Source: Candidatus Spongiisociaceae bacterium (GTDB lineage Bacteria > Actinomycetota > Acidimicrobiia > Spongiisociales > Spongiisociaceae). From it: 64,000 nucleotides of DNA. Shown piece after piece: positions 5,899 to 59,894 of the stretch. The notes beneath the pieces were generated by a model. That model was not told the DNA's origin. It saw only the letters and a program-made list of their open reading frames with translations, and did no database searches. Position 1 is the first letter of the stretch; the number at the start of each line of letters is the position of its first letter. The translations under genes and the position numbers were made by a program. Location: assembly GCA_965219685.1 (NCBI GenBank), contig CBDCOH010000002.1:1408001-1472000 (forward strand), in the 5' to 3' direction.

Positions 5899-6070
5899 CC
5901 AGGACGGCCATAACGGAGCGGTAAAGGCAAGCGAATAACGAGCCTGACCGCAGTTCTCGCGCGGGAGGATGCTGCTATCGGACGGTATCGTGGTCGAACA
6001 GCGCTACGCGGCCCGTTCGCGCGGCCCAGTGCAGCGCCCGACCCCGGACCACGGCCTGTCTATCTCCCTG

Positions 6071-7081: not shown

Positions 7082-7099
7082 GACGCCAATGCTCCCCGG

Positions 7100-8131
7100 C
7101 TACGCGTCGTCGTTTGCAATGACCCAGATCTGCTTCAGCGGGAGTTCGGCCTGGATCTCTTTGGGGAGACGGTCGTAGTTCTCGGTGATCTTTTCGATCA
7201 GATCGGCTGAGTCCCATATTCGAAGGTTGAACCACTGGTCCCGCGCCAACCTCCGTGCACCCCGGTTGAACCCGCTCCACGACACGAACAGCGACTGATC
7301 GGCGCCGAAGCTGCCAGCGGCGCCCAAGAGGTTTCGTAACGTGGGACCATCCACCGCCTTCTGTCCCGACTTGACCTGGACAGCGATCCTGGGCGGCTCA
7401 AAGCCGAGCGGTCCCCGGGCGGCCAGCACGTCGACTCCGCCGTCGGGACCGGCCGGGGACCGGAATGTGACGTAACCCTCCGCATCGAGTACCGCCTCGA
7501 CCAGTCTCTCCAACCCGTGTGCTTTGAACGTCGCGGCTATGTGGGCCGCGATGCCGTCGATCGCCAACGGCTCGATATCCACCGCGCCTTCTTCGTCGAC
7601 CGAGTCCGTACGGTCCTCTTGAGTCACTTCGCCCGATTGGCGGAGTTCCGGATCGCGCCCGGTCCGGGAGAACTCGGCCAGACGGGCTACTGCATTGTTC
7701 CGACTCGGGCTGAAAACCGTATGCAGGCCGCCCAACGTGTGGAGGAGATCCTGGCCGAGTGAACTTCGGGGCTGCTCGGTCAGCAGCCACTCCACAGGGC
7801 GAACGTGACGGCACCCGTCAGGGTTGCCGGGCTGGAACTTGTATCGGCCCGTGCATCGCCCTACCGCCAAGGTCCTTGTCCTCTTGGCGGGCAACACCAC
7901 CAGATCACCGATGTCGATGCTACGGACGAAGCGGAAGATCTGCCCGGCGTGGTTCAGCAGCCTGCCTCCCTCGGCGTATCCCGTAGCCAAGAGTTTCTCG
8001 CGGACTTCATCGCGGCCTTTGACGTTCGACAAGTCCCCCAACTCGTCCCAACCGATAACGACTACACCCATCTCCAGGGCGAAATCCTCATTCTCGCCGT
8101 CCTTGCCGGCGCGAACCACCCATGCCCTCAT
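7100..8131 (-). CDS. Mrr-like type IV restriction endonuclease with N-terminal putative modified-base-binding domain
   Basis: N-terminal WVVRAG...IGWDELGDLS...IGDLVVLP; C-terminal GPDGGVDVLA...AVQVKSG, WSGF, IWDSADL. Confidence 0.85.
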   Translation of the reverse strand: MRAWVVRAGKDGENEDFALEMGVVVIGWDELGDLSNVKGRDEVREKLLATGYAEGGRLLNHAGQIFRFVRSIDIGDLVVLPAKRTRTLAVGRCTGRYKFQPGNPDGCRHVRPVEWLLTEQPRSSLGQDLLHTLGGLHTVFSPSRNNAVARLAEFSRTGRDPELRQSGEVTQEDRTDSVDEEGAVDIEPLAIDGIAAHIAATFKAHGLERLVEAVLDAEGYVTFRSPAGPDGGVDVLAARGPLGFEPPRIAVQVKSGQKAVDGPTLRNLLGAAGSFGADQSLFVSWSGFNRGARRLARDQWFNLRIWDSADLIEKITENYDRLPKEIQAELPLKQIWVIANDDA

Positions 8132-25442: not shown

Positions 25443-25658
25443 GAGTACCTCGATCCCGACTCGCTGCTCAAGCAGGTAGCGGTCTCCCACGTCCCCCGGC
25501 CACTCAACTTCGGCGGCTGGGGCTACCTACACAGCAACTGGCACACCAACGTCCGCACCCGGATGAAGATCGACCGCATCCGCGTATGGCCGCCCGAGAA
25601 CCACTACTCCGACATGGAGCCCGTGTACCAGTGGGAAGTGGGACGCCGACGAGCGTCA
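25443..25658 (+). pseudogene. 3' relic of a third GH16-like paralog
   Basis: EYLDPD...QVAVSHVPRPLNFGGWG...RTRMKIDRIRVWPPENHYSDMEPVYQ, then TGG where the paralog has TAG; the downstream flank matches 29195-29220. Confidence 0.85.
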
Positions 25659-25707
25659 TATGCCTCCAATTACGGCAACAACGCATCATGTGGACATCAC
25701 ATTGACT

Positions 25708-27387
25708 ATGAGTCACCGTGTCGAATCGGGTAATCCCCCAGGTGCGAGACGCGTGGCGTTGCTGGCTGCGGTGACGGCGGTGGCTGCTCTGTTATCGGTC
25801 ACCCCCGGCGCGGCGGACACCGGCGCGGCGGACACCGCCCAGCCGGCGGTAGTCTTCGCCGACACCGAGTACTTCGTCCCCTTTTTGGGCAGAATGTTCA
25901 ACGAGACCACCACTCCCGGAGGCAACCCCGGCCTGCCCGGAACCGTCGCCTTGTCGGTCTCCACCAACAAGTTCAACTACTTCGGCGAGCTGGAGATGCA
26001 GAAGCGGTCCGGCACCGATCTGGACCTGTCATTCAAAGTCGAGGGCCAGCCCGACGCATCCAATTACCGGTACTGCAGACAGGACCGCTCCACCTGCCAC
26101 AACACAGAGGTGAGAGTTCTCCCCGACAAGGGTCTCCTGTACCTCTGGAACTCTGGGAACACGGACCCGCTTCACTGGCTGGCCACGTTCGAGCCCGAGC
26201 GGCTGGAGGTGTCGGCGGCGGACACCGGCACCGGACTGAAGGTATACCGGGAGGTGCTGGTGAACCCGCCGCCGGAGGTGCAGGGCTGCGAGGACTACGA
26301 CGACTACACCATCGAGGCCTATGTCTGCCTGTACCTGCGGGAGATCATTCCCGAGGAGGCTCGAGGCGGCAACGAGGCGACTCTGCGAGCGGGCCTGCCC
26401 GGGTTGGTCCAAGACAGCTCGAACTACCAACTGGTGTTCGCCGAGGAGTTCGACGGCTCCCCTCCTGCGGCAAACTTCGTGGGATGCAGAGACGGCCTAT
26501 CCACGCTGGACGACTCAGTGTGGAACTACGGCAATGCGTGTGCTTGGGTGGACTCCCGAGGCGAATCGTGCGGCAACATCGCCGACGGCAGCCTGAAGGT
26601 GGCGGCGGCCTACAAGTGCTATGCAGGCCTGAATACCTTCGGGAAGGTCCAATACAAGTACGGATACCTGGAGTTCAAATACACAGTCAACATGGATTAT
26701 TGGAGCAATTGGCCGAACTACAACCTAATAGCGTGGAACCCTCACAATTGGCGGAAGCATCTGTGGAACCAGTACGGCGTGCCGATGAACGACTGGGAGG
26801 ACTACCTCAAGTACGGCGATGTCGAACTCGATTGGCTTGAGTACGTCCCCGGCTCCAGACACCAGAGTTCGATTGTTCACGCGAATTGGGCCCACAGCAG
26901 TGCCGGCAACCTGCCATCGTACAAGATTGGTACGAATTTCAATTTCTGCCGACGCACGAGTAATCCGTACCACAGGTTCTACGTGAATCCCGCCGGAGGC
27001 TGCAGGCGAGCAGACACTTTCACAGTCACCATGGGAGTGGAGTGGACCCCGCGCGGCTATCGCACCTATACCACATTGGATGGCATCCATGACGAACAAA
27101 CGTTGGTGACCGAGCAATACTTGGAGATCATGGATTTCAAGGAAGGGCGAACAGCCCAGATTCCAGAAGGCGATCGGGCTCGCTACTTCGAATACCTCGA
27201 CCCCGATGACCCCAGCACGATCCTGGGGCAGGTCGGCGTTGCCCACACGCCGAGTCCCTTGAGCATCGGCACATGGGGATGGATGCGCGTAGGCCAGTCC
27301 TATATCCGCAGTTGGATGAAGATCGACTACATCCGACTGTGGCAGCCCGAGAACCACTACTCCGACATGGAGCCCGTCTACCAATGA
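25708..27387 (+). CDS. Secreted protein: unknown N-terminal domain plus GH16-like domain, paralog 1
   Basis: Signal peptide; LVFAEEFDG, YKYGYLE, ELDWLE (ExDxxE), MKIDYIRLWQ. Confidence 0.72.
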   Translation: MSHRVESGNPPGARRVALLAAVTAVAALLSVTPGAADTGAADTAQPAVVFADTEYFVPFLGRMFNETTTPGGNPGLPGTVALSVSTNKFNYFGELEMQKRSGTDLDLSFKVEGQPDASNYRYCRQDRSTCHNTEVRVLPDKGLLYLWNSGNTDPLHWLATFEPERLEVSAADTGTGLKVYREVLVNPPPEVQGCEDYDDYTIEAYVCLYLREIIPEEARGGNEATLRAGLPGLVQDSSNYQLVFAEEFDGSPPAANFVGCRDGLSTLDDSVWNYGNACAWVDSRGESCGNIADGSLKVAAAYKCYAGLNTFGKVQYKYGYLEFKYTVNMDYWSNWPNYNLIAWNPHNWRKHLWNQYGVPMNDWEDYLKYGDVELDWLEYVPGSRHQSSIVHANWAHSSAGNLPSYKIGTNFNFCRRTSNPYHRFYVNPAGGCRRADTFTVTMGVEWTPRGYRTYTTLDGIHDEQTLVTEQYLEIMDFKEGRTAQIPEGDRARYFEYLDPDDPSTILGQVGVAHTPSPLSIGTWGWMRVGQSYIRSWMKIDYIRLWQPENHYSDMEPVYQ

Positions 27388-27466
27388 CCCTCCCCCCGGC
27401 GGTCAGAGAGCCACGGTCCGCAGTCGCGTCGGAACCCAATCGGCCTTGGACGCTCCGGGGTGGCAC

Positions 27467-29197
27467 GTGATCAGGTCGCCGGCCAGGCGTCTAGCACTGC
27501 CAGCTGCCGTGATGATGGTGGTGACGGCGCTTCTCGTCGTGTCGGCGCCAGGCGGGGAATCGTCGACGTATCTGGGCTCCGTCCCGGCCGCCGCGGCCGC
27601 CTCTCAGCCGTCGGGGCCGGTGTCGTCAGGCAACCACGAGCCGACGGTGGCCTTCGCCGACACCGAGTACTCGGTCCTCTTGTTGGGACGCATATTCGGC
27701 CGCACCGAGGTTCCCGGAGGCAACCCCGACCTGCCCCGGGACTTAGCGGAGGCAGCTTCCACCAACACGTTCACATACTTCGGTGAACTGGAGACGGAGC
27801 AGCGGCACGACGCCGACTTGGATCTGACGTTCATGGTCGAGGGCCGGCCCGACGCATCCAACTACCAGTACTGCAGACAGGATTCGCCCACCTGCCACAA
27901 CACAGAGGTGAGAGTTCTCCCCGACAAGGGACTCCTGTACTTCTGGTACTCAGGAAGCACGATCAACGAGACCCACTGGCCGGCCGCATTCGCCCCCCAG
28001 CGGCTGGAAGTGTCGGCGTCCGAGACCGGCACTGGACTCAAGGTGTACCGGGAGGTGCTGGTGAACCCGCCGCCGGAGGCCGAGGGCTGCGAGGACTACG
28101 GCGAAAACAGCGTCGAGGCCTACGTCTGCATCTACCTGCGGGAGTTCATCCCCGACGGAGCCGGGGGTGGCAGCAACGAAGGGACGCTGCGGGCCGGCTT
28201 GCCCGGGCTGGTGTACGACAGTTCAAACTACAACCTGGTTTTTGCGGAAGAGTTCGACGGCACCCCTCCTGCCGCCAACGATGCAGGGTGCAGCGACGGC
28301 CTTTCCACGCTGGACGACTCGATTTGGAACTACAACGACGCCTGCGTAGAGGTGGACCCCCGGGGCGAGTCGTGCGGCAACATCGCCGACGGCAGCCTTA
28401 CGATCGCGAGGGCACACAAGTGCCGTGCGAAGCTGAGTACCTATGGCAAACTCCACTACAGATACGGATACCTGGAGTTCAAATACACAGTCAACATGGA
28501 TCGATGGACCGACTTACACGCCAACATGAACCTCTTAGCGTGGGTCCACAACAATTCGCGGAAGCATCTGTGGAGCCAATACGGCGTGCCGATGAACGAC
28601 TGGGAGGACTACCTCAAGTACGGCGATGTCGAAATGGACTTCTTGGAGTACGTTCCCCCCGGCAGACACCAGAGTTGGAATACGCACGCGAATTGGCACC
28701 AATCCATAGCCGACAACCTGCCGGGGTACAGGGGCCGCAAGCAGATCTATTTCTGCTGGAACTCGAACTATTCGTACTATGGGTTCTGGGTGAATCCCGG
28801 AACCTGCAGGGCTGCAACCACTTTCACAGTCACCCAGGGAGTGGAGTGGACCCCGCGCGGCTACCGCACCTTTATGAAATTAGACGACTTTCATGACGAA
28901 CTAACGTTGGTGACCGAGCAATACATAGAGATCACGGAGTTCAGGCAAGGGCGAGTAGTCCACCCTTCGGAGGACGAGCGGTCTCGCTACTTCGAATACA
29001 TCAAGCCCGATGACCCCAGCACGATTCTGGAGCAGGTCGCCATCGGCCACACGCCGAATCCTTTGAGCATCGCCACCTGGGGCTATCCGGCGAGCTTCGC
29101 TCGGCCGCCCTCTATACGCACCCGGATGGAGTTCGACTACGTCCGGCTGTGGCAGCCCGAGAACCACTACTCCGACATGGAGCCCGTGTACCAGTAG
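27467..29197 (+). CDS. Secreted protein: unknown N-terminal domain plus GH16-like domain, paralog 2
   Basis: Signal peptide; LVFAEEFDG, YRYGYLE, EMDFLE, MEFDYVRLWQ; collinear with paralog 1. Confidence 0.72.
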   Translation: MIRSPARRLALPAAVMMVVTALLVVSAPGGESSTYLGSVPAAAAASQPSGPVSSGNHEPTVAFADTEYSVLLLGRIFGRTEVPGGNPDLPRDLAEAASTNTFTYFGELETEQRHDADLDLTFMVEGRPDASNYQYCRQDSPTCHNTEVRVLPDKGLLYFWYSGSTINETHWPAAFAPQRLEVSASETGTGLKVYREVLVNPPPEAEGCEDYGENSVEAYVCIYLREFIPDGAGGGSNEGTLRAGLPGLVYDSSNYNLVFAEEFDGTPPAANDAGCSDGLSTLDDSIWNYNDACVEVDPRGESCGNIADGSLTIARAHKCRAKLSTYGKLHYRYGYLEFKYTVNMDRWTDLHANMNLLAWVHNNSRKHLWSQYGVPMNDWEDYLKYGDVEMDFLEYVPPGRHQSWNTHANWHQSIADNLPGYRGRKQIYFCWNSNYSYYGFWVNPGTCRAATTFTVTQGVEWTPRGYRTFMKLDDFHDELTLVTEQYIEITEFRQGRVVHPSEDERSRYFEYIKPDDPSTILEQVAIGHTPNPLSIATWGYPASFARPPSIRTRMEFDYVRLWQPENHYSDMEPVYQ

Positions 29198-29232
29198 GAA
29201 TTGGGCCCCGGCGAGCGTCAGCGGGCAGCCCA

Positions 29233-29733
29233 CTAGCTGTCGGTAGGCGAATTCTCCCAGCGAACCTCTCCGAAGCGGGCGAAGTCGGTGTCGGCGCTCA
29301 TCACCGTGAGGCCGTGCTCAGTGGCGAGAGCCGCCAGCATGGCGTCGGGCACCAGATTGGCCGTGACGTGATGGCCGGTGACGAGTTCGCCCAGGATGGC
29401 GGCGGCGCGGCGCAGGTCACTCCACTGCTTCAGGGCGCGGCCGTCGGGATAGAGCCGCAGCACGGTCGGCTCCGGCTGGCGGACGGTGACACGTCCGGCG
29501 AGCCCCATGTCCCGGATCACCGGTCGTTGCAGGCCCCACAGCCGGAACGCGCACGTGGAGAAGCGGAACCCGTCGATGAGTTCTTCCGTGGCGACAGCGC
29601 CGCCCACGTGGCTGCGCGCTTCGAGAAGCCGCACCCGGAACCCGGCACGCGCCAGGTAGAACGCCGTCACCAACCCGTTGTGCCCGGCTCCCACGATGAC
29701 GACATCCGTGCCGGTCCTCGTCGAGCCCCTCAC
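29233..29733 (-). pseudogene. Chimera: phytoene-dehydrogenase-like FAD oxidoreductase N-terminus fused to VapC/PIN toxin C-terminus
   Basis: VVIVGAGHNGL...LEARSHVGGAVATEE, then ANLVPDAMLAALATEHGLTVMSADTDFARFGEVRWEN; junction at about 29400-29415. Confidence 0.75.
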
Positions 29734-29738
29734 GGGCG

Positions 29739-31214
29739 TCAGCCCACTATCGGCCAGGGGGTGAAGCTCCCCGGACCCACCTCGTTCTCGAAGCGGGAAG
29801 CGGCCGCATCGATCCGGCGATACGCCTCCGCCGCGTCGAAGCGGGTGAAGCGACCCCCGTCGTAGATGGCTTCCCCGTCGACGATGACCGTGTCGACCGT
29901 GCGGGACTGCCGGTAGAACACCAGGCTGTCGACGGGATCCTGGAATCTGGGGTGCGCTTCGGGACGATCCAGCGAGTGGATCACGATGTCGGCGCGCTTG
30001 CCGACTTCCAGCGACCCGATCTCGTCTGCCATGCCCACAGCCGCCGCGCCGTGCAGTGTTGCCATCTCGAGGATCGTCTCCCCCGTGAAGACCGGCATCT
30101 CGTTCCGGACCTCGCGGAATCCAACCGCGGCGAGATACATCTGCCGCCCGACGTCGCGCCGTGCGCTCACCCCATCGGACCCGAGGGCGACCGTTGAACC
30201 GGCGCGCACCATCTCCGGGAAACGGCCCATCCGCAGGGCGCCCATACCCCGGCGTACCGAGGCGGTCGGGCAGTGGACGACGCTGGTGCCCGACTCGATC
30301 GTGAGCTCCAGCTCGCGCTCGTCGAGGTGGATCATGTGCACGAGCGTGAGCCCCGGTCCGAGGATTCCGAGGTCGGCGAGGTGTTCGAGGGGCCGCTTAC
30401 CGTGCTCGTCGAGCGAGGCGCTGACCTCCTCGGGCCCCCAGGACTGATGCATGAGCATGGGCACCCGGTGCTCGTGCGCCAACTCCCTGGCTCGGACAAG
30501 CAGCTCGTCGGTGTTCCGTCCGCTGCCGAACAGGTTGACTACGCCCCTCACCCGTCGCTCGCTGTGAAACGGGTGATCCTCGATCTGGCGCTGCAGCCGC
30601 TCGAGCGCGACGGGGGTGGTCACCCCGAGGATGTCGATCTCCGACTGCGGCATCGAGCCGAACCGCGGGTCCTCGAGCTCGTCGGCATCGATCTCCAGGT
30701 TGCCGTCGATGAGAAAGTGGCCCGGGAAGCCCCGGATACCCACCATCTCGAGGGCGCGCACCTCGTCCTCCAGCCAGAAAGCGCTCCCGGTATCGGCGAA
30801 CATCGTTGTGCCGTTGGCGACCATCTCCATGGACGAGATCAGAGTGCCGAAGTGGTCCATCTCCGGTGAGCGTGCATCCCACAGGGCCAACTCCAGGTCG
30901 CTCCAGTCGGCCGTGTCTTTGGGCGCGAACCCGCGGATCAGCTCTTGGCTGTTGACATGAACGTGGGCATCGATGAATCCGGGGTGAACAAGGGCGCCTT
31001 GCAGGTCGCGTTCCGCTGCGCCGTCGGGCACCGCAATCTCGTCGTCCGGTCCGATGGCGACGATCCGGCCGCTGCCGATCGCGATCGAACCATCCAGCAG
31101 GATACGGCGATCGGTATCCATCGTGATGATGTGACCGTGCCGCAGCACGGTGTCCACACCGGTTGCCGGACGCTCTTCGCCTGCAGGCGTCACGTCGACC
31201 TGCTCCGGCTCCAC
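29739..31214 (-). CDS. Amidohydrolase (AtzA/TrzA/SsnA-like), paralog of 58443-59894
   Basis: PGFIDAHVH, GTT, VHCP, ALGSDG, GSLEVGKRAD; start uncertain (GTG at 31214). Confidence 0.88.
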   Translation of the reverse strand: MEPEQVDVTPAGEERPATGVDTVLRHGHIITMDTDRRILLDGSIAIGSGRIVAIGPDDEIAVPDGAAERDLQGALVHPGFIDAHVHVNSQELIRGFAPKDTADWSDLELALWDARSPEMDHFGTLISSMEMVANGTTMFADTGSAFWLEDEVRALEMVGIRGFPGHFLIDGNLEIDADELEDPRFGSMPQSEIDILGVTTPVALERLQRQIEDHPFHSERRVRGVVNLFGSGRNTDELLVRARELAHEHRVPMLMHQSWGPEEVSASLDEHGKRPLEHLADLGILGPGLTLVHMIHLDERELELTIESGTSVVHCPTASVRRGMGALRMGRFPEMVRAGSTVALGSDGVSARRDVGRQMYLAAVGFREVRNEMPVFTGETILEMATLHGAAAVGMADEIGSLEVGKRADIVIHSLDRPEAHPRFQDPVDSLVFYRQSRTVDTVIVDGEAIYDGGRFTRFDAAEAYRRIDAAASRFENEVGPGSFTPWPIVG

Positions 31215-31240
31215 GGTCTCTACGCTGCCTTGCCTGCCGC

Positions 31241-32182
31241 CTACGACCCGACGAGCCAACGGCGGGGGTTGTCCTGGGTGATCTTCTTTATCGCCTCTTC
31301 CGTAATGCCCAGATCGAGCAGCGCCGGGAGGAACGTCTCGGAGAGATACACGAAGCCGGGACCGCCGTGGGTCTTGAACTGAGGGAACTTGCAGGTGTCG
31401 TGGGAGAGCAGGACATAGTCCTCATGTCCCTTGTCGACCAACTCCTTCACGGTGTTCATGATGTGCTCCTCGAAGGTTCCCAGACCAGTGAATTGCCCGC
31501 AGTTGTCGAACATGACGAGGGCTCCTCGTGCGATGAGACCCTCGAGGAATTCCATGTGGGGATAGGAATCGCAATGGCCGACCGCGACCCGAGACATGTC
31601 GACATCCTCTTCCTCGAAAATCGTCAGGATGTCGGGTGCGACGGGGCCGATAGCGTGGATCGCACCCAGCGCGAGTCCGGTTGCCTTGTGGGCCCGTGCC
31701 GCCGCTCGCAGCACCCTCTCCTCCACCGGAGCGACCCAGGTCTTCTCCACACCGATCTCGCCGATCACCCCGGGCTTGATGCCGGTCCCGTCGACTCCCT
31801 CTGTGATCTCTGCGATGAGCTGGTCGGCGAGGGATCCGACGGTACGTCTCTCGATCACATCCTCGGGCCGGTAGTAATTGCCCCGATACCATCCGCACCC
31901 CATCACGATCTGGACGCCCGTGGTCTCAGAAAGCTTACGCAGGCGCTCCGGCGACCTGCCGATGTCCGGTACGGTCAGATCGACGAGAGTGGTTCCGCCC
32001 AGTTCTCCGAACGCCGCGACCTCGGCCGTGACGACGCGGTCGTCGTCGAACTGGTCGGGGAAGTCGTAGCGGTGCGCCGCCTGGCGGAGTTGACAATAGG
32101 GATGCTCATGGGGAAGCACGTAGCCGAGTTGGTCTGCTGGGATGGGCCCCAGAACGGTCATCACGCTTCCCGGGTCCGACAT
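31241..32182 (-). CDS. Phosphotriesterase-homology (PTE/PHP) family hydrolase
   Basis: VMTVLGPI, HEH, DIGRSP, GVIGEIG, VGHCD, LSHD, DNPRRWL. Confidence 0.9.
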   Translation of the reverse strand: MSDPGSVMTVLGPIPADQLGYVLPHEHPYCQLRQAAHRYDFPDQFDDDRVVTAEVAAFGELGGTTLVDLTVPDIGRSPERLRKLSETTGVQIVMGCGWYRGNYYRPEDVIERRTVGSLADQLIAEITEGVDGTGIKPGVIGEIGVEKTWVAPVEERVLRAAARAHKATGLALGAIHAIGPVAPDILTIFEEEDVDMSRVAVGHCDSYPHMEFLEGLIARGALVMFDNCGQFTGLGTFEEHIMNTVKELVDKGHEDYVLLSHDTCKFPQFKTHGGPGFVYLSETFLPALLDLGITEEAIKKITQDNPRRWLVGS

Positions 32183-50757: not shown

Positions 50758-51411
50758 TCACCCGAACAGCGCCCTGGCGATCTCCGGCTGGCGGCGTTGC
50801 CAGTACCGAGCCACGGTTTCGGGCAAGCGCGGTTGGCCGAGGCTCGCCGAGAGCCAAGGATCATCGGCCACGTCGCTGAAGGACCCCAGCGCCCGGACGA
50901 GGTGATAGACGCTCTGGTGCGTGCTGTCGACTCCGTATCGCAGGCAATACCAATCGAGCATCGCCATCGCGTCCGTATCCCCCATCACCTCGATGCACAT
51001 GAGGTCGTAGTAGTCGCGCAACTCTCCCCGATCTCCTACGACCTTCAACTTGGTGGCGGCCACGTCGGGGAACGATCCAACGACCATCTCGCCGACCTTC
51101 CGACCACGCTCGATCCTGTGCTGTCCGGTTGCCGAGAGAAACTGGATCTTGACCTCACCGAAGACACAGTTGAGCGTGCCCTCCGACCGGTACTCCGATG
51201 CCACCGGTCCATGTCGCTGCAGGCTCTCGAGCAAGACCCCGGGGTCGAAAGGAGCGTGGACGAAAATGTCCAGATCCTCCGACTGGCGATGTTCGAGGTA
51301 TGTGGCCAGAGCCGTCCCACCCATGAGCTCTCCCGAGGGCGGCGACAACGAACCCACCAGATCCCAGATCTCCAGCATGGCGGGGGTCAGAATCCCGTCA
51401 GCGACGGGCAT
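50758..51411 (-). CDS. AbiEii/AbiGii-like nucleotidyltransferase toxin
   Basis: LMGGTALATYLEHRQSEDLDIF, ATKLKV..RGELRDYYDL. Confidence 0.85.
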   Translation of the reverse strand: MPVADGILTPAMLEIWDLVGSLSPPSGELMGGTALATYLEHRQSEDLDIFVHAPFDPGVLLESLQRHGPVASEYRSEGTLNCVFGEVKIQFLSATGQHRIERGRKVGEMVVGSFPDVAATKLKVVGDRGELRDYYDLMCIEVMGDTDAMAMLDWYCLRYGVDSTHQSVYHLVRALGSFSDVADDPWLSASLGQPRLPETVARYWQRRQPEIARALFG

Positions 51412-51646
51412 CGATAGCGTTGCAGATCAGGTCTCGCGTGACCGGCTTGGTGGATCGCAGGGTCAAGCAGTACTCGAGCGCCTCGGTAGGTAGATGGACC
51501 GAGGCCCATATCGCTGCATCCGGCCAAGGCCCGTTGAACATTCGTCCTGCCACGTACTCGGAGTCGTCGGGCAGGCGGAGCAGGCCGGGGTCGGGGTGGT
51601 TCCAGAAGGACTTCCAGAACCTCTCAGGTATACGTCTCATACTCAA
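51398..51646 (-). CDS. Small putative antitoxin partner of the AbiEii-like gene
   Basis: IPERFWKSFWN...EYVAGRMFNG; overlaps the toxin start. Confidence 0.65.
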   Translation of the reverse strand: MSMRRIPERFWKSFWNHPDPGLLRLPDDSEYVAGRMFNGPWPDAAIWASVHLPTEALEYCLTLRSTKPVTRDLICNAIDARR

Positions 51647-51784
51647 TACATATGTTACCTGACATCGGGTATTAGATCAGCTCCACCCATCCCGGCAGAA
51701 GCCGGGTTCGATCCGCCCCTGTGTACCTCCGCAGTCCGAGCACCGTCCGCCGGCGTGCCCCTGCAAAGCGCAGTCGGTCGGGCG

Positions 51785-52301
51785 TACTGCTAGGGTGCCG
51801 GACGCAGTGCGTAACTTCGACCTGATGATCATCGGCACCGGATCCGGAAACTCGGTGATCGGACCGGAACACGACGGTTGGGACATCGCCATCGTGGAGC
51901 GGGGCCTGTTCGGCGGCACCTGCCTGAACGTGGGCTGCATACCTTCGAAGATGTTCGTCTACGCGGCGGAGATGGCCGAACTGGCAGCCGACAGCGAACG
52001 GCTGGGCGTACGAACCCGCTTCGACGGCGCCGACTGGCCATCCATCCGTGACCGCGTGTTCGGCCGTATCGACCCCATCGCCGCGGGCGGCCGCACCTAC
52101 AGGGAGGAACTCCCCAACGTGACTGTCTACCCCGGAACCGGGCGGTTCGTCCGTTCGAAAGGTGTAACCGTGTGCGACTCGGTCGTCACCACCGAACCGA
52201 TCGTCATAACGCCGGGAGGACGACCCACCGTACCCCCGTGCCGTGCTCAGCCGACTGCGCCTACCACATGTCGGACATACCGCGCATCGAGAAAGAAGTG
52301 A
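51785..52301 (+). pseudogene. Partial 5' duplicate of mycothione reductase (left direct repeat)
   Basis: 51785-51847 is identical to 54333-54395; mostly synonymous differences to ~52150, then decay and frameshift. Confidence 0.92.
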
Positions 52302-52343
52302 ACGCGCTACCCACTCATAAACATCGAACTACGGTATGATCCT

Positions 52344-53504
52344 GTGATGCCCTCACTGAACCAACCGCAGCGTACCACACGGGAACCCGACGACGATCCT
52401 CACGAACCCGACGATCTGACTCCAGAAGAGGAGGAAGACCTAACTAGCGCGGATGCCAATGTCCGGCCTGTTGCGTATTCCGGCCAAGACTTTGACGTGC
52501 ACGGACTCATCCGTAGATTAGGCAATGGCGACATTCTTATCCCCACCTTTGGCCACGCAGACCCACGAATAGTTAGTGCTGGATTCCAGCGGTCTTTCGT
52601 GTGGACGAAGCGTCAAATGGATCGGTTCATAGAGTCGCTCCTACTTGGCTACCCCATACCTGGGATCTTCCTCATCAAGCAGCGTGATAAACGGTACCTT
52701 GTACTTGATGGTCAACAACGTCTGATGACCCTCGGCTACTTCGCAGATGGGTTATATGCATCTAAGGAGTTCTCTCTCCACAATACAGCAGATCAGTTCA
52801 AGCATCTTACTTACAAGACGCTCCCCGAGGATCTACGGCGTCAATTCGATGACACATACATGAATGCGACGATCGTGTCTACGGACGGGTCTGCACAATC
52901 CCTTGAGTCTATATATCAGATCTTCGAGAGGCTCAATGCAGGAGGTACTAAGCTCACTCCACATGAGATTCGTGTTGCATTGTACGCGGGCCCAATAATT
53001 GACTATATTGAAGGACTCAACAGTGATTCGGTTTGGCGAGATCTCTATGGAAAACGTGCAAAGAGACTGCGAGATCAGGAACTCGTCCTACGAATAATTG
53101 CACTCTATGTCGCAGCCTCCACCTATAAACGACCTCTCAAGAGTTTTCTCAATACGTTCACAGGTATTCACCGTGATCTTCGTAATCTCCAAACAACACT
53201 CGTCGCTGAGCGGTTCACTACCGCAGCACAATTGATCAAGGATGGCCCAGGGAAAAGTGCAATACGTCTTAGAGGACGTCAGGTCAACGCAGCGCTAACG
53301 GAGGCTCTATTCGTAGGGCTTATGCGCCGACTAGATCAGGAGAACGACCCAGCGCCAAGTGCTGTGACGGATGCCGTGTCCGCGATAGCTACAGCTATAC
53401 AGTACAAGGAGGATTTGCTTGCTGCCGTCACTCGTTCAACTGCTGATGAGGATAAGGTTCGCACCCGTCTAGCATTCATGACTTCACATCTGGCAAGGAT
53501 CTGA
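52344..53504 (+). CDS. DUF262 (ParB/Srx-like, GmrSD N-terminal) protein
   Basis: FQRSFVW, SLLLGYPIP, VLDGQQRL, IFERLNAGGTKL; visibly low GC. Confidence 0.9.
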   Translation: MMPSLNQPQRTTREPDDDPHEPDDLTPEEEEDLTSADANVRPVAYSGQDFDVHGLIRRLGNGDILIPTFGHADPRIVSAGFQRSFVWTKRQMDRFIESLLLGYPIPGIFLIKQRDKRYLVLDGQQRLMTLGYFADGLYASKEFSLHNTADQFKHLTYKTLPEDLRRQFDDTYMNATIVSTDGSAQSLESIYQIFERLNAGGTKLTPHEIRVALYAGPIIDYIEGLNSDSVWRDLYGKRAKRLRDQELVLRIIALYVAASTYKRPLKSFLNTFTGIHRDLRNLQTTLVAERFTTAAQLIKDGPGKSAIRLRGRQVNAALTEALFVGLMRRLDQENDPAPSAVTDAVSAIATAIQYKEDLLAAVTRSTADEDKVRTRLAFMTSHLARI

Positions 53505-53505
53505 G

Positions 53506-54006
53506 TTGTCCAGGGGACAGAATCCGAACCTCAATATCCACAGGTCGGAACAATCGTTGGCCGCCCTACGAACTCTTGTCAACCAACAGGCCCGTACAGC
53601 AGATGACGACGTTGTACGGCAGTTGGCAAGGTTTCTTGTGATCAGAGCCTGTGGGTTCTTGGAGCAAGTTGCCAAAGAGTGTTGCATTTCTTACCTTCTT
53701 AGGCAATCAGATCCGAGAGCAGCAGCCTTTGGAGCGAGCTGGCTAAGGCGTGCCCCTAGTCCAACGCCGGACAATCTTGTAAGCCTGGTACGCCGGTTCG
53801 ACACCGTTTGGGCGGATGAACTCTGCGAGTTGCTAAACGAGGACGATGAGCGTCTTCGCCGTGAGATCGGGTTTCTGGTCGACCGTCGTAACAGAATCGC
53901 TCACGGTCTGAATGAGGGTGTCTCGACAGTGAAGGCTATCCAGCTAGCTGAAGTATCAGAGGAAGTTACGGATTGGTTTATCCGACGCCTCGGGACTCAA
54001 TCCTGA
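53506..54006 (+). CDS. HEPN-domain putative RNase (MAE_28990/MAE_18760 or RiboL-PSP-like)
   Basis: VIRACGFLE N-terminal helix and RNRIAH (Rx4H); 1 nt after the DUF262 stop. Confidence 0.82.
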   Translation: MSRGQNPNLNIHRSEQSLAALRTLVNQQARTADDDVVRQLARFLVIRACGFLEQVAKECCISYLLRQSDPRAAAFGASWLRRAPSPTPDNLVSLVRRFDTVWADELCELLNEDDERLRREIGFLVDRRNRIAHGLNEGVSTVKAIQLAEVSEEVTDWFIRRLGTQS

Positions 54007-54342
54007 TTGATGGGACAAGTCTGTGAGACTTTACTCATGGCTACTCTCTCTAAGGTGGCTTAGCCTTACAACTGCTGGAAGGGCAGTACTTCCACTCAAG
54101 AAGGATAAGCACGTCTGTTTAGTGTAGAGTATGTAAAACGGTTATTGAACAATGATGTCTATAACGGACCTTGGTCAAATAGAGGTTCACACATGTCCCC
54201 GAGACTACAACGGTGGTATACAGTTCGCGGACCTGGGAGAGTTCGCATCCTGGGCTGGACCGGACTCGTTGACGTCCTACGGCGGGAGACAGTCGGGACA
54301 AGCGCCGATTGCCACCACAAGCAAGCTCCGGCTACTGCTAGG

Positions 54343-55716
54343 GTGCCGGACGCAGTGCGTAACTTCGACCTGATGATCATCGGCACCGGATCCGGGAATT
54401 CGGTGATCGGTCCGGAGCACGACGGTTGGGACATCGCCATCGTGGAGCGGGGTCCTTTCGGCGGTACCTGCCTGAACGTGGGCTGCATACCTTCGAAGAT
54501 GTTCGTGTACGCGGCGGAGATGGCCGAGTTGGCTTCTGACAGTGAGCGGCTGGGCGTGCACACCCGCTTCGACGGCGCCGACTGGCCATCCATCCGCGAT
54601 CGCGTATTCGGCCGTATCGACCCCATCGCCGCGGGCGGCCGCACCTACCGCGAGGAACTTCCCAACGTGACCGTGTACTCCGGAACAGGGCGGTTCGTGG
54701 GAACGAAGCGTGTAGCGGTGGCCGACGAGGTCATTTCCGCCGAGCGGATCGTCATCGCGGCGGGAGGGAGGCCTACCGTTCCGCCCGTGCCGGGCCTCGC
54801 CGAATGCGGCTACCACACTTCGGACACGGTCATGCGGCTCGAGCGGCTGCCCGAGCGACTGCTGGTGATCGGCGCGGGGTACATCGCCGCCGAGCTGGGC
54901 GGTGTGATGGGCGCGTTCGGTTCGAAGGTCACCTTCCTACTCCGAGGCGACACCTTCCTGCGCCGGGAGGACCACGACATCAGCAGCCGGTTCACGTCTG
55001 CCTACTCACGTCGGTTCGACGTGCGAACGCACACCCGGCTGATCGAAGCCCGCCGGGACGGAGACGACGTCGTGATAGGCCTGGTCGACAAGGACGGAGA
55101 CAGAATCGAGTTGAGTGGGGATGAGTTGCTGGTGGCCACCGGCCGCCGGCCCAACACCGACCAACTCGACTTGACCGCGGGAGGAATCGAAGTCGACCGA
55201 CGCGGCTTCGTGGTCACCGACGACCAACTCCGCACGAGCGTCGACGGCGTGTGGGCGCTCGGCGACATCACCAACCCCGTCCAGCTGAAGCACGTCGCCA
55301 ACCACGAGGCCCGGGTGGTGCGTCACAACCTGACCAACCCGGAAAGTCCGGCGACCGTCGACCACCGCTTCATCCCGCATGCAGTGTTCGGCTATCCCCA
55401 GATCGCCAGCGTGGGCTTCACGGAGCAGGAGTGCAGGCAGCAGGACCTCCCGTACGTGAGCCATGTGCAGCCCTACTCGGAGGCCGCCTACGGCTGGGCG
55501 ATGGAGGACACCGATAGCGTGGCCAAGGTGATCGCCCACGCCGAGACCCGCCGTCTCCTCGGCGCCCACATCATCGGACCGCAGGCGCCCACCCTCATCC
55601 AGCAACTCATCCAGGGCATGCACTTCGACCTGACCGTCGACCAGATGTCACGCGGCCAGTATTACATCCACCCTGCGCTCCCCGAGGTAGTCGAACAGGC
55701 CCTGCTCGAACTCTGA
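54343..55716 (+). CDS. mtr: Mycothione reductase
   Basis: IIGTGSGNS, GGTCLNVGCIPSK, QLKHVANHEARVVRHN, AYGWAMED, YYIHPALPEVVE. Confidence 0.9.
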   Translation: MPDAVRNFDLMIIGTGSGNSVIGPEHDGWDIAIVERGPFGGTCLNVGCIPSKMFVYAAEMAELASDSERLGVHTRFDGADWPSIRDRVFGRIDPIAAGGRTYREELPNVTVYSGTGRFVGTKRVAVADEVISAERIVIAAGGRPTVPPVPGLAECGYHTSDTVMRLERLPERLLVIGAGYIAAELGGVMGAFGSKVTFLLRGDTFLRREDHDISSRFTSAYSRRFDVRTHTRLIEARRDGDDVVIGLVDKDGDRIELSGDELLVATGRRPNTDQLDLTAGGIEVDRRGFVVTDDQLRTSVDGVWALGDITNPVQLKHVANHEARVVRHNLTNPESPATVDHRFIPHAVFGYPQIASVGFTEQECRQQDLPYVSHVQPYSEAAYGWAMEDTDSVAKVIAHAETRRLLGAHIIGPQAPTLIQQLIQGMHFDLTVDQMSRGQYYIHPALPEVVEQALLEL

Positions 55717-56098: not shown

Positions 56099-57403
56099 TC
56101 ACGACACTATTGCCACCTGCTCAAGCACCGCCGCTGCCGTTTGCAGGATGTATTCGACGTGGTCTTCCCCCATGACCGAAGAGGTGGACAGGAACGGGAA
56201 ACCGAAAACGCCGCGGTTCCCGAACGCCAGAGAGAGGCCGGTCATCAGCACGTCGGGTCGGCGTACTTCCGGCTCGCAGGCCAGGCTGAGCAGGGACCCG
56301 CCGCCTTCGACTCGGAGTGGCAGGCCCCGTTCACTCACGGCGGCGGACAAGCCTTCGCGCAGCAGCCTGCCGAGGTGGTCGATCCGGTCGTAGACCTCCC
56401 GGGTGAGGAGGCGGAGGCCGGCGACCCCCGCTGCGGCCGTCATCGGGTTGGCGTTGAAGGTCCCTGCCAGGGCCACCTTCATGTCGCCGAGCGGGTCGGT
56501 GACCGCCATGATGTCGGCCCTCCCACCGAACGCGCCGACCGGGAGGCCGCCGCCGATCAGCTTCCCGAGAGCGGTCATGTCGGGCGCCACCCCGTAGCGT
56601 TCCTGCGCGCCTCCCATCGCCAGGCGCAGGGAGATGACCTCGTCGAACAGGAGGAGCACTCCCTCGTCCGCCGTAACGGCTCGCAAGGTCTCCAGGAACC
56701 CTTCGGGCGGATGGGCGAAGCCGCCCGCCGAGCGGAATGGGGTGAGGATCACCGCGGCCATCCGGTCGGCGTTCAGCCTGATCAGGTGGGCGACACCATC
56801 GGTGTCCCCCCAGGAACCCAGCACGACGTTGTCCGAGAGGTTGGCGGGCACTCCCCCGGTGCTCGGCGCCATGCCGACGGCGCCCGGAGCGGACCCGAAC
56901 TCGAAGCCGTCGTAGGTGCCGTGATAGGCGCCGTCCAGCTTGAGGACGAGGTCCCGGCCGGTGAAGGCCCGGGCCACCTTGAGCATGTGCATGTTGGCCT
57001 CGGTGCCCGAGTTGGCGAAGCGGACCCGCTCGATCGACGGGATCCGCTCGCAGAGGATGCTCGCCCACTCGACCTCGGTCGGGTTGTGGCCTCCCCAGGC
57101 GGTCCCCGACTCCGCCTGGGACCGCACCGCCGCCACGATGTCGGGATGGGCGTGCCCGTGGACCAGCGCGGTCGAGTTGTTGTTCAGGTCGAGGCGGCGA
57201 TTCCCGTCGACGTCCCAAATGTAAGGGCCTTCCCCGCGCTCGAAGTAGGGAGGGTGCGGGCGGGTCGTAATCGAGTAACGGGTATCACCGCCCGGGAGGA
57301 CCCCCCCACCCCTAACGAATAGGGCTGCCGAACGGGGGGTGATCCGGCGGTACTCGTCGACTATCCCCTGGTACCACTCGAGGAGCGGTTGGTCGGCGCT
57401 CAT
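56099..57403 (-). CDS. Class III aminotransferase (glutamate-1-semialdehyde aminomutase-like)
   Basis: WDVDGN, GHAHP, RFANSGTEA, FDEV, GKLIGGGLPVGAFGG, GTFNANP; ATGA-coupled start MSADQP. Confidence 0.9.
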   Translation of the reverse strand: MSADQPLLEWYQGIVDEYRRITPRSAALFVRGGGVLPGGDTRYSITTRPHPPYFERGEGPYIWDVDGNRRLDLNNNSTALVHGHAHPDIVAAVRSQAESGTAWGGHNPTEVEWASILCERIPSIERVRFANSGTEANMHMLKVARAFTGRDLVLKLDGAYHGTYDGFEFGSAPGAVGMAPSTGGVPANLSDNVVLGSWGDTDGVAHLIRLNADRMAAVILTPFRSAGGFAHPPEGFLETLRAVTADEGVLLLFDEVISLRLAMGGAQERYGVAPDMTALGKLIGGGLPVGAFGGRADIMAVTDPLGDMKVALAGTFNANPMTAAAGVAGLRLLTREVYDRIDHLGRLLREGLSAAVSERGLPLRVEGGGSLLSLACEPEVRRPDVLMTGLSLAFGNRGVFGFPFLSTSSVMGEDHVEYILQTAAAVLEQVAIVS

Positions 57404-58341
57404 GTTCCGGTCAGCCAGCGTCGGGGATTGTCGTGGGTGATGGTCCTGATGATCTCGTCGGGCACACCCCTGGCGGACAGCGCGGGCAGGAACGTCTCGG
57501 ACAGGTACACGAAACCGGTGCCGCCGTGTATCCGCAACTGCCCCAGCTTGCACACATCGTGGGAAAGCATCAAACGGTCCTCGAATCCCCTGTCGATCAG
57601 TTCACGGATGAGGTCGAGAATACGTTCCTCGAACCGGCCCATGCCCCGGAACTGGCCGCAGTTGTCGAACATGACGTACACACCTCGGTCAAGCAGTCCG
57701 AGCAGGTAGCGGAGGTGCGGGTAGGCGTCGCAGTGCGCCACCGCCACCCGCCTGAGGTCCGCATCCTCCTCTTCGAGAATGTTCAGTTGCGCCGGAGCGA
57801 CCGGGCCGATGGCGTGGAGGGCCCCGATGGAGAGGCCCGTGGCCTTGTGCGCCCGAGCCGCGGCCCGCAGCACCCGCTCCTCTGCCGGGGACACCCAATC
57901 CTTCTCCGACCCGATCTCACCGATCACGCCCGGGCGGATGTCCGTGTCACCCACCCCTTCGGTGATCTCCCGGATCAACTCCTCGGCCAGGTCATCAGCC
58001 GACCGCCGATCGATCCGCTCGTCGGGCAGGTAGTAGTTCCCGCGGTACCAGCCGCAACCCATGACGAAGTGCACCCCGGTTCGCTCCGACAGGACGCGTA
58101 GCCGACGTGGGGACCTGCCATTGTCGGGAACGCTCAGGTCGAAGATGCTCGCTCCTCCCAGGTCGCCGAACGCCGTCACCTCGTCGGCCATCACATCCTC
58201 GTCGACGAACTGGTCTGCAACGTCGTAGCGGTAGTCGGCGTGCCGGAGGGTGCAGTAGACATGCTCGTGGGGAAGGGTGAACCCGAGTTCGTCAGCCGGT
58301 ACCGGTCCCAGAACTGTCATAACCGTTCCGACATCGTTCAT
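57400..58341 (-). CDS. PTE/PHP family hydrolase, paralog of 31241-32182
   Basis: HEH, GVIGEIG, AHCD, LSHD, DNPRRWL. Confidence 0.9.
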   Translation of the reverse strand: MNDVGTVMTVLGPVPADELGFTLPHEHVYCTLRHADYRYDVADQFVDEDVMADEVTAFGDLGGASIFDLSVPDNGRSPRRLRVLSERTGVHFVMGCGWYRGNYYLPDERIDRRSADDLAEELIREITEGVGDTDIRPGVIGEIGSEKDWVSPAEERVLRAAARAHKATGLSIGALHAIGPVAPAQLNILEEEDADLRRVAVAHCDAYPHLRYLLGLLDRGVYVMFDNCGQFRGMGRFEERILDLIRELIDRGFEDRLMLSHDVCKLGQLRIHGGTGFVYLSETFLPALSARGVPDEIIRTITHDNPRRWLTGT

Positions 58342-58442
58342 CCGGACCTCCTCGATCGGCTGTCAGGAACCGTTCAGGGACTCTACCGGGCTGATGCCGC
58401 TGTGGCGTACCCTGTGACACAGCCGTAGCCTGTTTCCGGGAG

Positions 58443-59894
58443 GTGGACTTGAACCGCGAGCACAGCACCGAGCACGAGGTCGACCTGCTTCTCCGTCACG
58501 CGCGCATCATCACGATGGACCCAGCGCGGAGGATCCTGGTCGACGGAGCGGTCGCCGTCGGCGATGGGCGCATTCTGGAGGTGGGGCCCGACCGTGAAGT
58601 GTCGGCGGTGGTTACCCATGCCGCCGCTACCCGCGACCTCGGTGGCGCCCTGGTACATCCGGGGCTCGTCGACGCCCACGTCCACGCGGGCAGCTCCGAA
58701 CTCAGCCGGGGCATGGCGCCCAAGGATCATGCCGACTACGGGGCGGTCGACGACTGGCTGTTCACCTTCCGCAGCCCCGAGACCGACCACCTCGGCGCTT
58801 TGCTGTCGTGCATGGAGATGGTGACCAACGGCACCACCGCGTACAGCGACACCGGAGGATCCTTCTTTTTGGACGAGACCGCCCGGGCCATCGAAACGGT
58901 CGGGATGCGGGGCATGCCCGGACATTCAATGCTCGACTTCAACCCCCGGGTTCCAGGCCGCGACACCTCCGCGGGCGCCATGTCCGACGAGGAGGCGGAG
59001 ACATTGCGTACCCCGACACGGGAGTGCGTCGAGAAGCTGGACGACCAGATGAGCCGCTACCCGTTCCGCGGCGGCGGGCTCGTCCGGGGCGGGGCGACCA
59101 TGTACGGCTGCATGCGCTGCTCCGACGAGCTGCTCATCAAGGCTCAGGCTCTCGCCAGGAAACACGGGGCGCCGATGATCATGCACCAGTCGTGGGATCC
59201 CGAGGAGGTGACCATCTCCGAGGCGCTGTACGGATGCCGCCCCATCGAACATCTGGCCGAGATCGGGGTGCTGGACGAGAACCTGACGCTGGTCCACATG
59301 AACCATCTGTCCCCGGTCGAGGTCGACCTGGTGGCCGAATCGGGCACCCGGGTGGTGCACTGCCCGGCGGCGTCCCTGCGGCGGGGTATGGGTGCGATCA
59401 GGAACGGCTCCTTCCCCGAGATGCTCGCCAAGGGTGTCCCGGTGGCTCTCGGCTCCGATGGCTACAGCGGCCGGCGGGATGTGCTTCGTCAGGCCTACCT
59501 GGCTGCGGTTGGGTTCCGTGAGTTCCGGGGTGAGTTGCCGGTCCTGACCGGCGAGACCGTCCTCGAGATGGCCACTCTCCACGGAGCCAAGGCACTCGGG
59601 CTCGAGGACGAGGTCGGTTCGATCGAGATAGGCAAGCGGGCCGACCTGGTGATCCACAGCCTGGATAGGCCCGAGGCATACCCCCGGTTCCAGGATCCCG
59701 TCGACAACCTCGTCTATTTCCGGGCATCGAGCACAGTGGATACCGTCTTCGTCAACGGGGAAGCAATCCTCGACGGAGGCCGCTTCACCCGTTTCGACGC
59801 AGCGGAGGCCTACCGCAGAATCCAGGATGCGGCGGCCGAGTTCGAGTCGGGCGTGGGCGCCACGACCTACGCCGTCTGGCCCCTCGTCGACTAG
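58443..59894 (+). CDS. Amidohydrolase (AtzA/TrzA/SsnA-like), paralog of 29739-31214
   Basis: PGLVDAHVH, MHQSW, VHCP, ALGSDG, GSIEIGKRAD. Confidence 0.88.
   Translation: MDLNREHSTEHEVDLLLRHARIITMDPARRILVDGAVAVGDGRILEVGPDREVSAVVTHAAATRDLGGALVHPGLVDAHVHAGSSELSRGMAPKDHADYGAVDDWLFTFRSPETDHLGALLSCMEMVTNGTTAYSDTGGSFFLDETARAIETVGMRGMPGHSMLDFNPRVPGRDTSAGAMSDEEAETLRTPTRECVEKLDDQMSRYPFRGGGLVRGGATMYGCMRCSDELLIKAQALARKHGAPMIMHQSWDPEEVTISEALYGCRPIEHLAEIGVLDENLTLVHMNHLSPVEVDLVAESGTRVVHCPAASLRRGMGAIRNGSFPEMLAKGVPVALGSDGYSGRRDVLRQAYLAAVGFREFRGELPVLTGETVLEMATLHGAKALGLEDEVGSIEIGKRADLVIHSLDRPEAYPRFQDPVDNLVYFRASSTVDTVFVNGEAILDGGRFTRFDAAEAYRRIQDAAAEFESGVGATTYAVWPLVD

Follow-up and report, generated by a model that had tools for sequence, protein, structure and literature searches.

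How does a gene pair with a putative defense function come to lie between two copies of the 5′ end of a housekeeping gene, with no recombinase gene nearby? The question is raised by a locus in Candidatus Spongiisociaceae bacterium (Actinomycetota; Acidimicrobiia), which we analyzed within 64,000 nucleotides (nt) of contig CBDCOH010000002.1 of GenBank assembly GCA_965219685.1 (positions 1,408,001 to 1,472,000 of the forward strand); this stretch is called the window here, and positions are counted from its first letter. An earlier note on the window had described a unit low in guanine plus cytosine (GC), consisting of a DUF262 gene with a DGQQR motif and, 1 nt downstream, a HEPN gene with an Rx4H motif, between a partial and an intact copy of the mycothione reductase gene, mtr. 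Searches with Pfam and with the mycothione reductase model NF005884, together with the GC content (45 to 55% in the cargo, 65 to 70% in the flanks), confirmed this layout. Our analysis suggests that duplicative homologous recombination in mtr brought a PD-T4-2-type module into a variable spot free of mobile-element genes, and that the locus was later reshaped by recombination, a reading that we hold with about as much confidence as doubt. What we infer here is how and when the recombination proceeded, how the genes are expressed, and that they serve in defense.

The 5′ end of mtr is present on both sides of the gene pair

The mtr 5′ end occurs twice, as a 493/494-nt direct repeat at positions 51785 to 52277 and 54333 to 54826, which spans mtr from −10 to +484. 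The copies are 91% identical and lie 2.5 kb apart. Alignment confirmed the 63-nt identical core that had been reported at the outer end of the repeat (51785 to 51847 on the left, 54333 to 54395 on the right); it covers the ribosome-binding region, the start codon, and the first 53 coding nt of mtr, and the copies first differ at coding nt 54. Identity is 93% between 51785 to 52084 and 54333 to 54632, and the alignment resumes at 52235 to 52277 and 54784 to 54826 with 81% identity and an offset moved by 1 nt. The arms keep several identical runs of about 35 to 63 nt. With 32 differences in 370 nt, the chance that the first 63 nt would be free of differences is about 0.0016.

The right copy forms the 5′ end of the intact mtr (54343 to 55716, plus strand), which matches NF005884 over its full length with 639.5 bits against a cut-off of 501. 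The left open reading frame (ORF), referred to as mtr′ (51795 to 52301, plus strand, 168 amino acids [aa]), matches the same model over its first ∼150 positions only. A 1-nt deletion after 52234 shifts its frame and leads to a stop at 52299 to 52301, which falls within the 69-nt junction (52278 to 52346) between the end of the mtr homology and the start of the DUF262 gene. The DUF262 and mtr′ proteins are identical to entries recorded on a 4.39-Mb contig, and the assembly is likely chromosome-scale.

The earlier note had the core span both promoter and start. The start is indeed included. Upstream, the core reaches only 10 nt beyond the annotated GTG, or 22 nt if translation starts at the GTG at 51807/54355, and at either length it is too short for a promoter. 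The latter start is likely the real one, given the MRNF start of the orthologs at loci L006 and L003 and the 164-aa length of database entry P0121, so that for the intact mtr we regard GTG 54355 as the likely start codon. A faint similarity said to extend upstream of both cores was not borne out: in local alignment of the 200 nt upstream of each core, 477 of 500 shuffles scored at least as high, so that the duplication has a sharp left boundary. At the inner end, homology past 52277 was not above chance (178 of 500 shuffles), and the homology of the left copy stops at 52277 against both the right copy and the ortholog of the syntenic relative introduced below.

The truncated mtr copy is a mosaic

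When genomes were scanned with the intact Mtr protein, 80 loci were obtained, the closest of them in metagenome-assembled genomes (MAGs) of Acidimicrobiia at 86 to 90% protein identity. Only one, L001, whose Mtr is 90% identical, is syntenic with the window. For the analysis of the left copy, L001 was used as the third sequence and L006, L002, and L003 as outgroups.

In codons 1 to 120, the left and right copies differ at 32 nt, 25 of which are third positions, and these give 22 synonymous and 5 nonsynonymous codon differences. The earlier observation that divergence after the core is mostly synonymous therefore holds, and from this bias the proximal part of the left copy derives from a functional allele. 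Codons 121 to 140 contain 3 synonymous and 11 nonsynonymous differences. The transition is abrupt: the first 357 coding nt contain 8 left-specific changes, whereas the next 84 nt, from about nt 358 on, contain 16 (binomial p = 4.6e-7); right-specific changes are uniform, with 20 in the same 357 nt and 5 in the same 84 nt. Of the claim that the left copy decays progressively and frameshifts toward the cargo, the frameshift stands and the progressive decay is replaced by this step.

A second breakpoint is indicated by the way in which sites group with L001. In nt 1 to 63, the left and right copies agree against L001 at 5 sites. Over nt 1 to 180, sites that unite left and right against L001 number 10, versus 4 that unite left and L001 against right; over nt 181 to 360, the corresponding counts are 7 and 16, and nearly all of the 16 are third positions. 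The contrast between the two intervals is significant (Fisher p = 0.021) and places a breakpoint near nt 165 to 186. With no fewer than two breakpoints, the left copy has a mosaic structure and not a smooth gradient, and recombination must have acted within this arm at least twice.

The proximal part beyond the core (51848 to 52151, plus strand; coding nt 54 to 357) is allele-like, with mostly synonymous divergence, and its nt 186 to 357 group with L001. The distal part (52152 to 52277, plus strand; coding nt 358 to 484) has about 70% identity to the right copy, carries the 1-nt deletion, and has lost a conserved IAAGG motif. It is matched best by the closest clade among the 80 orthologs (DNA identity of 77% for L001 and 78% for L002); a piece of mtr from a distant donor is ruled out, as the best of the 80 are L001, L002, and L006 at 74 to 78%. 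Judging from these comparisons, nt 358 to 484 represent what is left of a window/L001-type mtr after long decay, and the proximal ∼360 nt of mtr′ were replaced later by functional-allele sequence from a related lineage. The proposal that both segments were once functional alleles is consequently sustained for the proximal left part, the cargo-proximal 125 nt being a much older relic, and the decay of these 125 nt makes it probable that the duplication itself is old.

Pairwise identities over nt 1 to 360 are 91.1% for left and right, 91.9% for left and L001, and 89.2% for right and L001, so the three sequences are roughly equidistant. In nt 1 to 357, the pseudogene branch carries 8 changes versus 20 on the functional branch (p = 0.036). 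These branch lengths oppose a history in which mtr was simply duplicated in place and the broken copy then decayed neutrally, as this would predict the reverse. We also looked for signs that the 5′ end of the right copy is foreign; its 15 differences to L001 in nt 1 to 180 lie inside the gene-wide range of 12 to 48 per 180 nt and speak neither way.

The cargo is a candidate PD-T4-2-like module

The first cargo gene (52344 to 53504, plus strand) encodes a DUF262/ParB-like NTPase with DGQQR and QRxxxW motifs; PF03235 (3e-28) is its sole Pfam match, and the database entry for the protein begins at ATG 52347 (385 aa). In PADLOC, the protein matched NsnA at 1.1e-57 (model positions 36 to 378 of 385) and PD-T4-2_A at 9.1e-41 (positions 55 to 355 of 363), and it would be the PD-T4-2_A/NsnA-like sensor component. 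One nucleotide further downstream, a gene for a RiboL-PSP-type HEPN protein of 166 aa follows (53506 to 54006, plus strand). This protein matches PF18735 at 1.9e-7 (31.6 bits versus a cut-off of 28.4), contains the Rx4H motif as R128…H133, and is a predicted RNase effector. From what is known of the two families, the DUF262 NTPase is most likely a sensor of phage DNA, and the most likely role of the HEPN protein is that of an RNase effector. No match to DUF1524 was found in either cargo protein with Pfam, which rules out a GmrSD (type IV restriction) system.

Relatives of the DUF262 protein are numerous, with 2,886 at E ≤ 0.001 among 8,000 scored candidates, and the closest non-self relatives among the matches listed have 70 to 75% identity (best, 75%). 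On all four plasmids examined, from Kocuria, Arthrobacter, Rhodococcus, and E. coli, a DUF262 gene is followed by a HEPN gene. The window HEPN protein is 38% identical to its counterpart on the Arthrobacter plasmid, and R128 and H133 are invariant in an alignment of five HEPN sequences. PD-T4-2 is a two-gene antiphage system from a functional selection in E. coli (Vassallo et al. 2022, as cited in PMC10952713 and PMC12065111), and a table in the former review lists it with both DUF262 and a PF18735 HEPN. The window pair shares with PD-T4-2 the combination of a DUF262/ParB-like protein without DUF1524 and a PF18735-type HEPN, and the gene order on the four plasmids, that from E. coli included.

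The prediction of an antiphage pair in the earlier note is thus supported by PF03235 and PF18735, by the PADLOC match to PD-T4-2_A, and by the recurring plasmid pairs. By sequence, the cargo appears to be a PD-T4-2-like two-gene module from a known and widespread defense family, with a putative defense function, and makes a credible candidate defense pair. We also compared it with Menshen (NsnABC), whose NsnA has, in the account given in PMC12065111, a ParB-DUF262 plus ParBDB architecture that the window DUF262 protein matches. The window locus differs in having neither the NsnB ABC-ATPase nor NsnC; the next genes are the 166-aa HEPN gene and then mtr. Identification of the cargo as Menshen is ruled out by this lack of NsnB and NsnC downstream.

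The interval between orf82 and mtr differs in a syntenic relative

Synteny between the window and L001 extends on the left over aminotransferase-V, TPP-enzyme, and amidohydrolase genes and an 82-aa ORF, orf82 (84 to 93% identity), and on the right over aminotransferase-III and phosphotriesterase genes (84 to 93% identity). Between these flanks the contents differ. In L001, the interval from orf82 to mtr measures about 2 kb and contains an HNH-endonuclease gene, while in the window it comprises 110 nt before the left mtr copy; DNA homology between the two stops at 51667 and resumes at 51778. The noncoding DNA upstream of the left copy (51668 to 51784) has no counterpart in L001 or upstream of the right copy. 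The interval therefore constitutes a variable spot in this sublineage, free of mobile-element genes, as defined by one syntenic relative (n = 1). The earlier note had proposed that relatives be compared for empty sites or other cargo: L001 does carry different cargo at the same spot, and neither repeats nor an empty site were seen in the 80 loci.

The left anchor of the spot, orf82 (51398 to 51646, minus strand), has an 88% identical homolog at 7707 to 7952 of L001 and no Pfam, NCBIfam, or PADLOC match. It overlaps the start of an AbiEii-like nucleotidyltransferase toxin gene (50758 to 51411, minus strand; PF08843, 1.7e-10; PADLOC AbiEii, 2.5e-6), a part of the variable segment that has the amidohydrolase gene on one side and mtr on the other. 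No AbiEii homolog was detected in L001 by tblastn at E ≤ 1e-5, and an NYN-domain gene is found where the window has AbiEii. In L001 (region 6777 to 7976), orf82 has no AbiEii partner and lies about 420 nt from the NYN-domain gene. From these arrangements, the pairing of orf82 with a toxin gene seems exchangeable.

The variability does not extend to mtr loci in general. Ten other close loci have a different mtr neighborhood (GcvP, enoyl-CoA hydratase [ECH], MMPL, SDR, and similar genes), and these ordinary neighbors rule out that the region upstream of mtr is a general defense hotspot. In one related locus, L002, a TnpB/IS605 OrfB-like gene (5717 to 6835, minus strand; Cas12f1-like_TNB, 7.4e-22) is present about 3 kb upstream of mtr, in surroundings that otherwise bear no relation to those of the window mtr.

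An HNH gene is also found in the window (4534 to 5898, plus strand), at a different chromosomal site from that in L001 (8101 to 9534, plus strand); the two proteins have 73% identity, and the genes may belong to a mobile or multicopy family in the lineage. DNA homology between them covers the ORF and ∼36 nt upstream only, and 447 nt of unrelated DNA separate the L001 gene from mtr. On these grounds, the HNH gene was ruled out as the agent that set the mtr junction in L001.

A protein database search with the mtr′ ORF returned 741 matches at E ≤ 1e-10. Among them, five entries (P0122 to P0126) are N-terminal Mtr fragments of 210 to 255 aa that are 73 to 81% identical to the mtr′ ORF, on contigs of 6 to 64 kb. 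Frameshifts in assembly, genes cut at contig ends, and additional truncated copies are all possible explanations for these fragments. Three short DNA matches to the mtr 5′ fragment in relatives (45 to 48 nt, 78 to 79% identity) were taken as chance.

Recombinase genes and expression signals

In line with the earlier note, which had seen no recombinase gene nearby, none of the selected ORFs scanned with Pfam across the window contained an integrase, transposase, resolvase, or relaxase domain. The sole tRNA gene in the window, tRNA-Pro (6884 to 6972), is 45 kb from the repeat. The borders of the cargo also differ from those of a site-specific element, where a short identical att core at both borders without homology beyond it would be expected; here, homology runs ∼430 nt past the core on one side only, and the 63-nt core sits at the outer, not the inner, end of the duplicated segment.

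Between the HEPN gene and the right repeat copy lies a noncoding spacer of 326 nt (54007 to 54332) that is GC-poor at its 5′ end and is the only DNA able to hold a private promoter for the intact mtr. No sigma-70-like site was found in it. RNA structure was not in excess over 54007 to 54342 (z = 0.02) and Rfam gave no match; the compared loci contained no homologs of the spacer apart from one marginal tblastx match (E = 0.008), and no integrase remnant was recognizable. These results rule out a structured RNA or a gene remnant. Terminator-like sites that would separate mtr′, cargo, and mtr were not present beyond chance expectation. The intact mtr may be read through from the outer promoter or transcribed from an unrecognized promoter in the spacer.

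Possible origin of the arrangement

The topology is that of a Campbell-type integration: the outer upstream DNA leads into a 3′-truncated mtr′, the cargo comes next, and last is a complete mtr whose homology starts 10 nt ahead of its start codon. One contiguous segment is duplicated around the insert, one copy is 3′-truncated, the other is complete and cut from the outer upstream DNA, and the arms are mosaic, with breakpoints inside the duplicated segment. In laboratory insertion-duplication of the Campbell type, a nonreplicating plasmid with an internal or 5′ gene fragment integrates into the chromosome. Its product resembles the window in having a truncated copy behind the outer promoter, an insert, and a full-length copy that starts where the cloned fragment started; the window differs in being a natural case, with diverged and mosaic arms and with no known circular intermediate. 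The partial duplication of mtr around the cargo suggests that clean double crossovers were not the only events and that a single crossover or an ends-in event also took place at some stage.

In the course of events that we propose, the incoming DNA would have carried an mtr 5′ fragment beside the cargo, and a Campbell-type or "ends-in" crossover in mtr would have produced the 3′-truncated mtr′ on the outside, the cargo, and the complete mtr. Transcription of the complete gene would then either start at the upstream promoter and read through, or start within the 326-nt spacer. The proximal ∼360 nt of mtr′ would later have been overwritten by recombination with functional mtr alleles, either by gene conversion or by transfer of the whole island between related lineages through crossovers in mtr. 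The repeat would also permit a RecA-dependent, precise loss of the module; such a deletion, restoring a single mtr, is plausible, and like any direct repeat, this one could in principle serve for excision or amplification.

Several observations weigh against this proposal. Among the 80 related mtr loci, none had a second mtr 5′ fragment by tblastn, none had the DUF262/HEPN cargo, and neither an empty site nor a circular form nor a second instance came to light. Within the best 120 of the 741 matches to the mtr′ ORF, none exceeded 81% identity except the window's own entry. The source of an incoming molecule with an mtr fragment beside the cargo is left unexplained. A 63-nt identical run has a probability of ∼0.06 of arising by chance somewhere in the arm, which is mildly unlikely. 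In a consensus scan of 51400 to 54500, promoter-like sites (one) and terminator-like sites (two) were no more numerous than chance would give. Which copy is resident, and when the events took place, is judged from a comparison of three sequences, with modest numbers of sites and one syntenic relative, L001. The likeness of the cargo to PD-T4-2 also has its bounds: in PADLOC, the DUF262 protein scores higher on the NsnA model than on the PD-T4-2_A model, and the window HEPN protein lacks a match to the narrow PD-T4-2_B model even at E ≤ 10. The HEPN homologs on the plasmids match PD-T4-2_B weakly in three of four cases (E = 0.0034, 0.0079, and 0.00044), with no match for that of Rhodococcus. 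The window pair differs from PD-T4-2 further in its host, a member of the Acidimicrobiia, and in its defense activity, which is putative here.

The rival that survives best is a sub-variant of this explanation and differs from it in where and how the duplication arose. The mtr′ relic, the cargo, and the spacer would have been assembled long ago in another lineage and imported as a ready-made block by an ordinary double crossover, in orf82 or the amidohydrolase gene on the left and in the first ∼50 to 185 nt of mtr on the right, with no single crossover in this genome. We consider such an import possible, if on the improbable side. It explains the identity from −10 to +53, the 9 differing sites up to about +185, and the 13% synonymous-biased divergence that follows, as well as a left arm that is nearer to L001 than the resident gene is and the much greater age of the relic. 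How the duplication first arose is not accounted for, no donor with the block was found among the 80 loci and no close mtr′ ORF counterpart among the matches listed, and the comparison at the left-hand breakpoint is limited to the single syntenic relative.

Import by double crossover also matches a published model: as presented in Oliveira et al. 2017 (PMC5635113) and Johnson et al. 2023 (PMC10250203), many hotspots lack mobile-element genes and show recombination in the core genes beside them. The window resembles the mobile-element-free or "core defense hotspots" of these reports in its conserved flanks, the differing cargo in L001, the lack of mobility genes, and a mosaic flanking core gene; it differs from the hotspots as described there in that the 5′ end of the flanking gene is partly duplicated around the cargo and that two genomes share the spot. 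A Campbell-type crossover in this lineage and the import of a preformed block fit the data equally well. For the claim that the cargo arrived by a single crossover with mtr as homology arm, this means that the topology speaks for it, that the synonymous divergence does not date the arrival, and that the block may have been imported ready-made.

We regard a site-specific origin as unlikely. Here, an integrase-bearing element would have hit mtr and brought a replacement 5′ end and promoter, with its integrase since lost or supplied in trans, and the locus would be a decayed integrative element or cis-mobilizable remnant; the left copy would be the displaced resident 5′ end, with the crossover at about +484. 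Elements that replace gene ends include SXT at the 5′ end of prfC and e14 and phage 21 at the 3′ end of icd. Each carries an integrase gene, and recombination takes place at a short core, located where the duplicated segment has its inner end. The window has the topology of these elements, with a displaced truncated pseudo-copy at one border, the cargo, and a restored functional gene at the other, and the grouping of the left copy with the syntenic L001 in nt 181 to 360 fits a resident allele. In the left copy, the right copy, and L001, moreover, unrelated upstream DNA meets mtr at −8 to −17, although such junctions are expected wherever nonhomologous cargo meets a conserved gene edge.

Neither an integrase nor a fragment of one was found in the scanned window ORFs or in the 326-nt spacer, and the element would measure only about 2.5 kb. 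Identity is lowest (about 70 to 81%) at +360 to +484, where the att core would be expected and where the longest identical runs, near +484, are 7 to 9 nt; it peaks at the opposite, outer end. Over the same 360 nt, the distance from left to L001 (8%) is smaller than both that from right to L001 (10.8%) and the gene-wide 12.7%, which suggests that the unusual one is the left arm and not the right copy.

Quite unlikely, in our view, is the stronger form of the homologous-recombination account, in which the cassette would be a mobile unit of its own that needs no recombinase. It would follow a natural "suicide-vector" design, with the cargo and a host-gene arm passing from one related genome to another as a circle or an ends-in fragment, and entering and leaving by crossovers in the 5′ end of mtr that need RecA only. 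With every cycle, host sequence would replace the proximal arm, and the cargo-side end, too diverged to take part, would keep decaying, which would give the stepped mosaic. The recombinase-independent defense cassette of the earlier note finds no support as a recurrent, self-standing unit, as 0 of the 80 related mtr loci have a second fragment or the cargo. Very improbable, finally, is an assembly artifact in which two strains, with and without cargo upstream of mtr, were misjoined through their shared mtr 5′ end: the relatives are MAGs, the window may be one too, and the copies differ like alleles of co-occurring strains, but a misjoin would be sharp and highly identical, whereas the left copy ends, right next to the cargo, in a 125-nt stretch that contains an indel and is about 70% identical, and the 4.39-Mb contig suggests a long-read assembly that would easily resolve a 91% repeat spaced at 2.5 kb.

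Under the duplicative recombination that we favor, the locus stands as one instance from one lineage; it does not define a new kind of mobile element, and its duplicated-flank scar is uncommon but explicable. It offers a clear example of a putative defense module in a chromosome without mobility genes of its own. The unusual detail is the partial duplication of the flanking housekeeping gene, with a stepped mosaic that would record more than one recombination event. If similar scars flank other cargo, they would provide a sequence-level marker for single-crossover (duplicative) acquisition, which is assumed and rarely documented in natural genomes, and would also explain the precise loss of such modules.

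Other features of the window

Near the left end of the window, a gene with an Mrr-type restriction endonuclease domain (7100 to 8131, minus strand; PF04471, 2.8e-22) lies beside tRNA-Pro and about 1.2 kb from the window's HNH gene. This area may be another small accessory or defense patch.

A 166-aa ORF at 29233 to 29733 (minus strand) matches FAD/NAD-binding Rossmann models over its first ∼75 residues (NAD_binding_8, 4.4e-15) and the C-terminal part of a PIN domain over the remainder (4.6e-7). By its composition, the ORF resembles a scar left where an oxidoreductase gene, represented by its 5′ end, was fused to a VapC-like toxin gene, represented by its 3′ end. Next to it, the region from 25554 to 29205 contains tandem paralogs at 25660 to 27387 and 27446 to 29197 with 77 to 83% DNA identity, and the 3′ end of a third copy at 25554 to 25642; the two tandem paralogs had no Pfam match at E ≤ 1e-4. 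A phosphotriesterase-family gene with an amidohydrolase neighbor occurs twice in the window, at 29739 to 32182 and at 57400 to 59894, as a paralogous two-gene unit.

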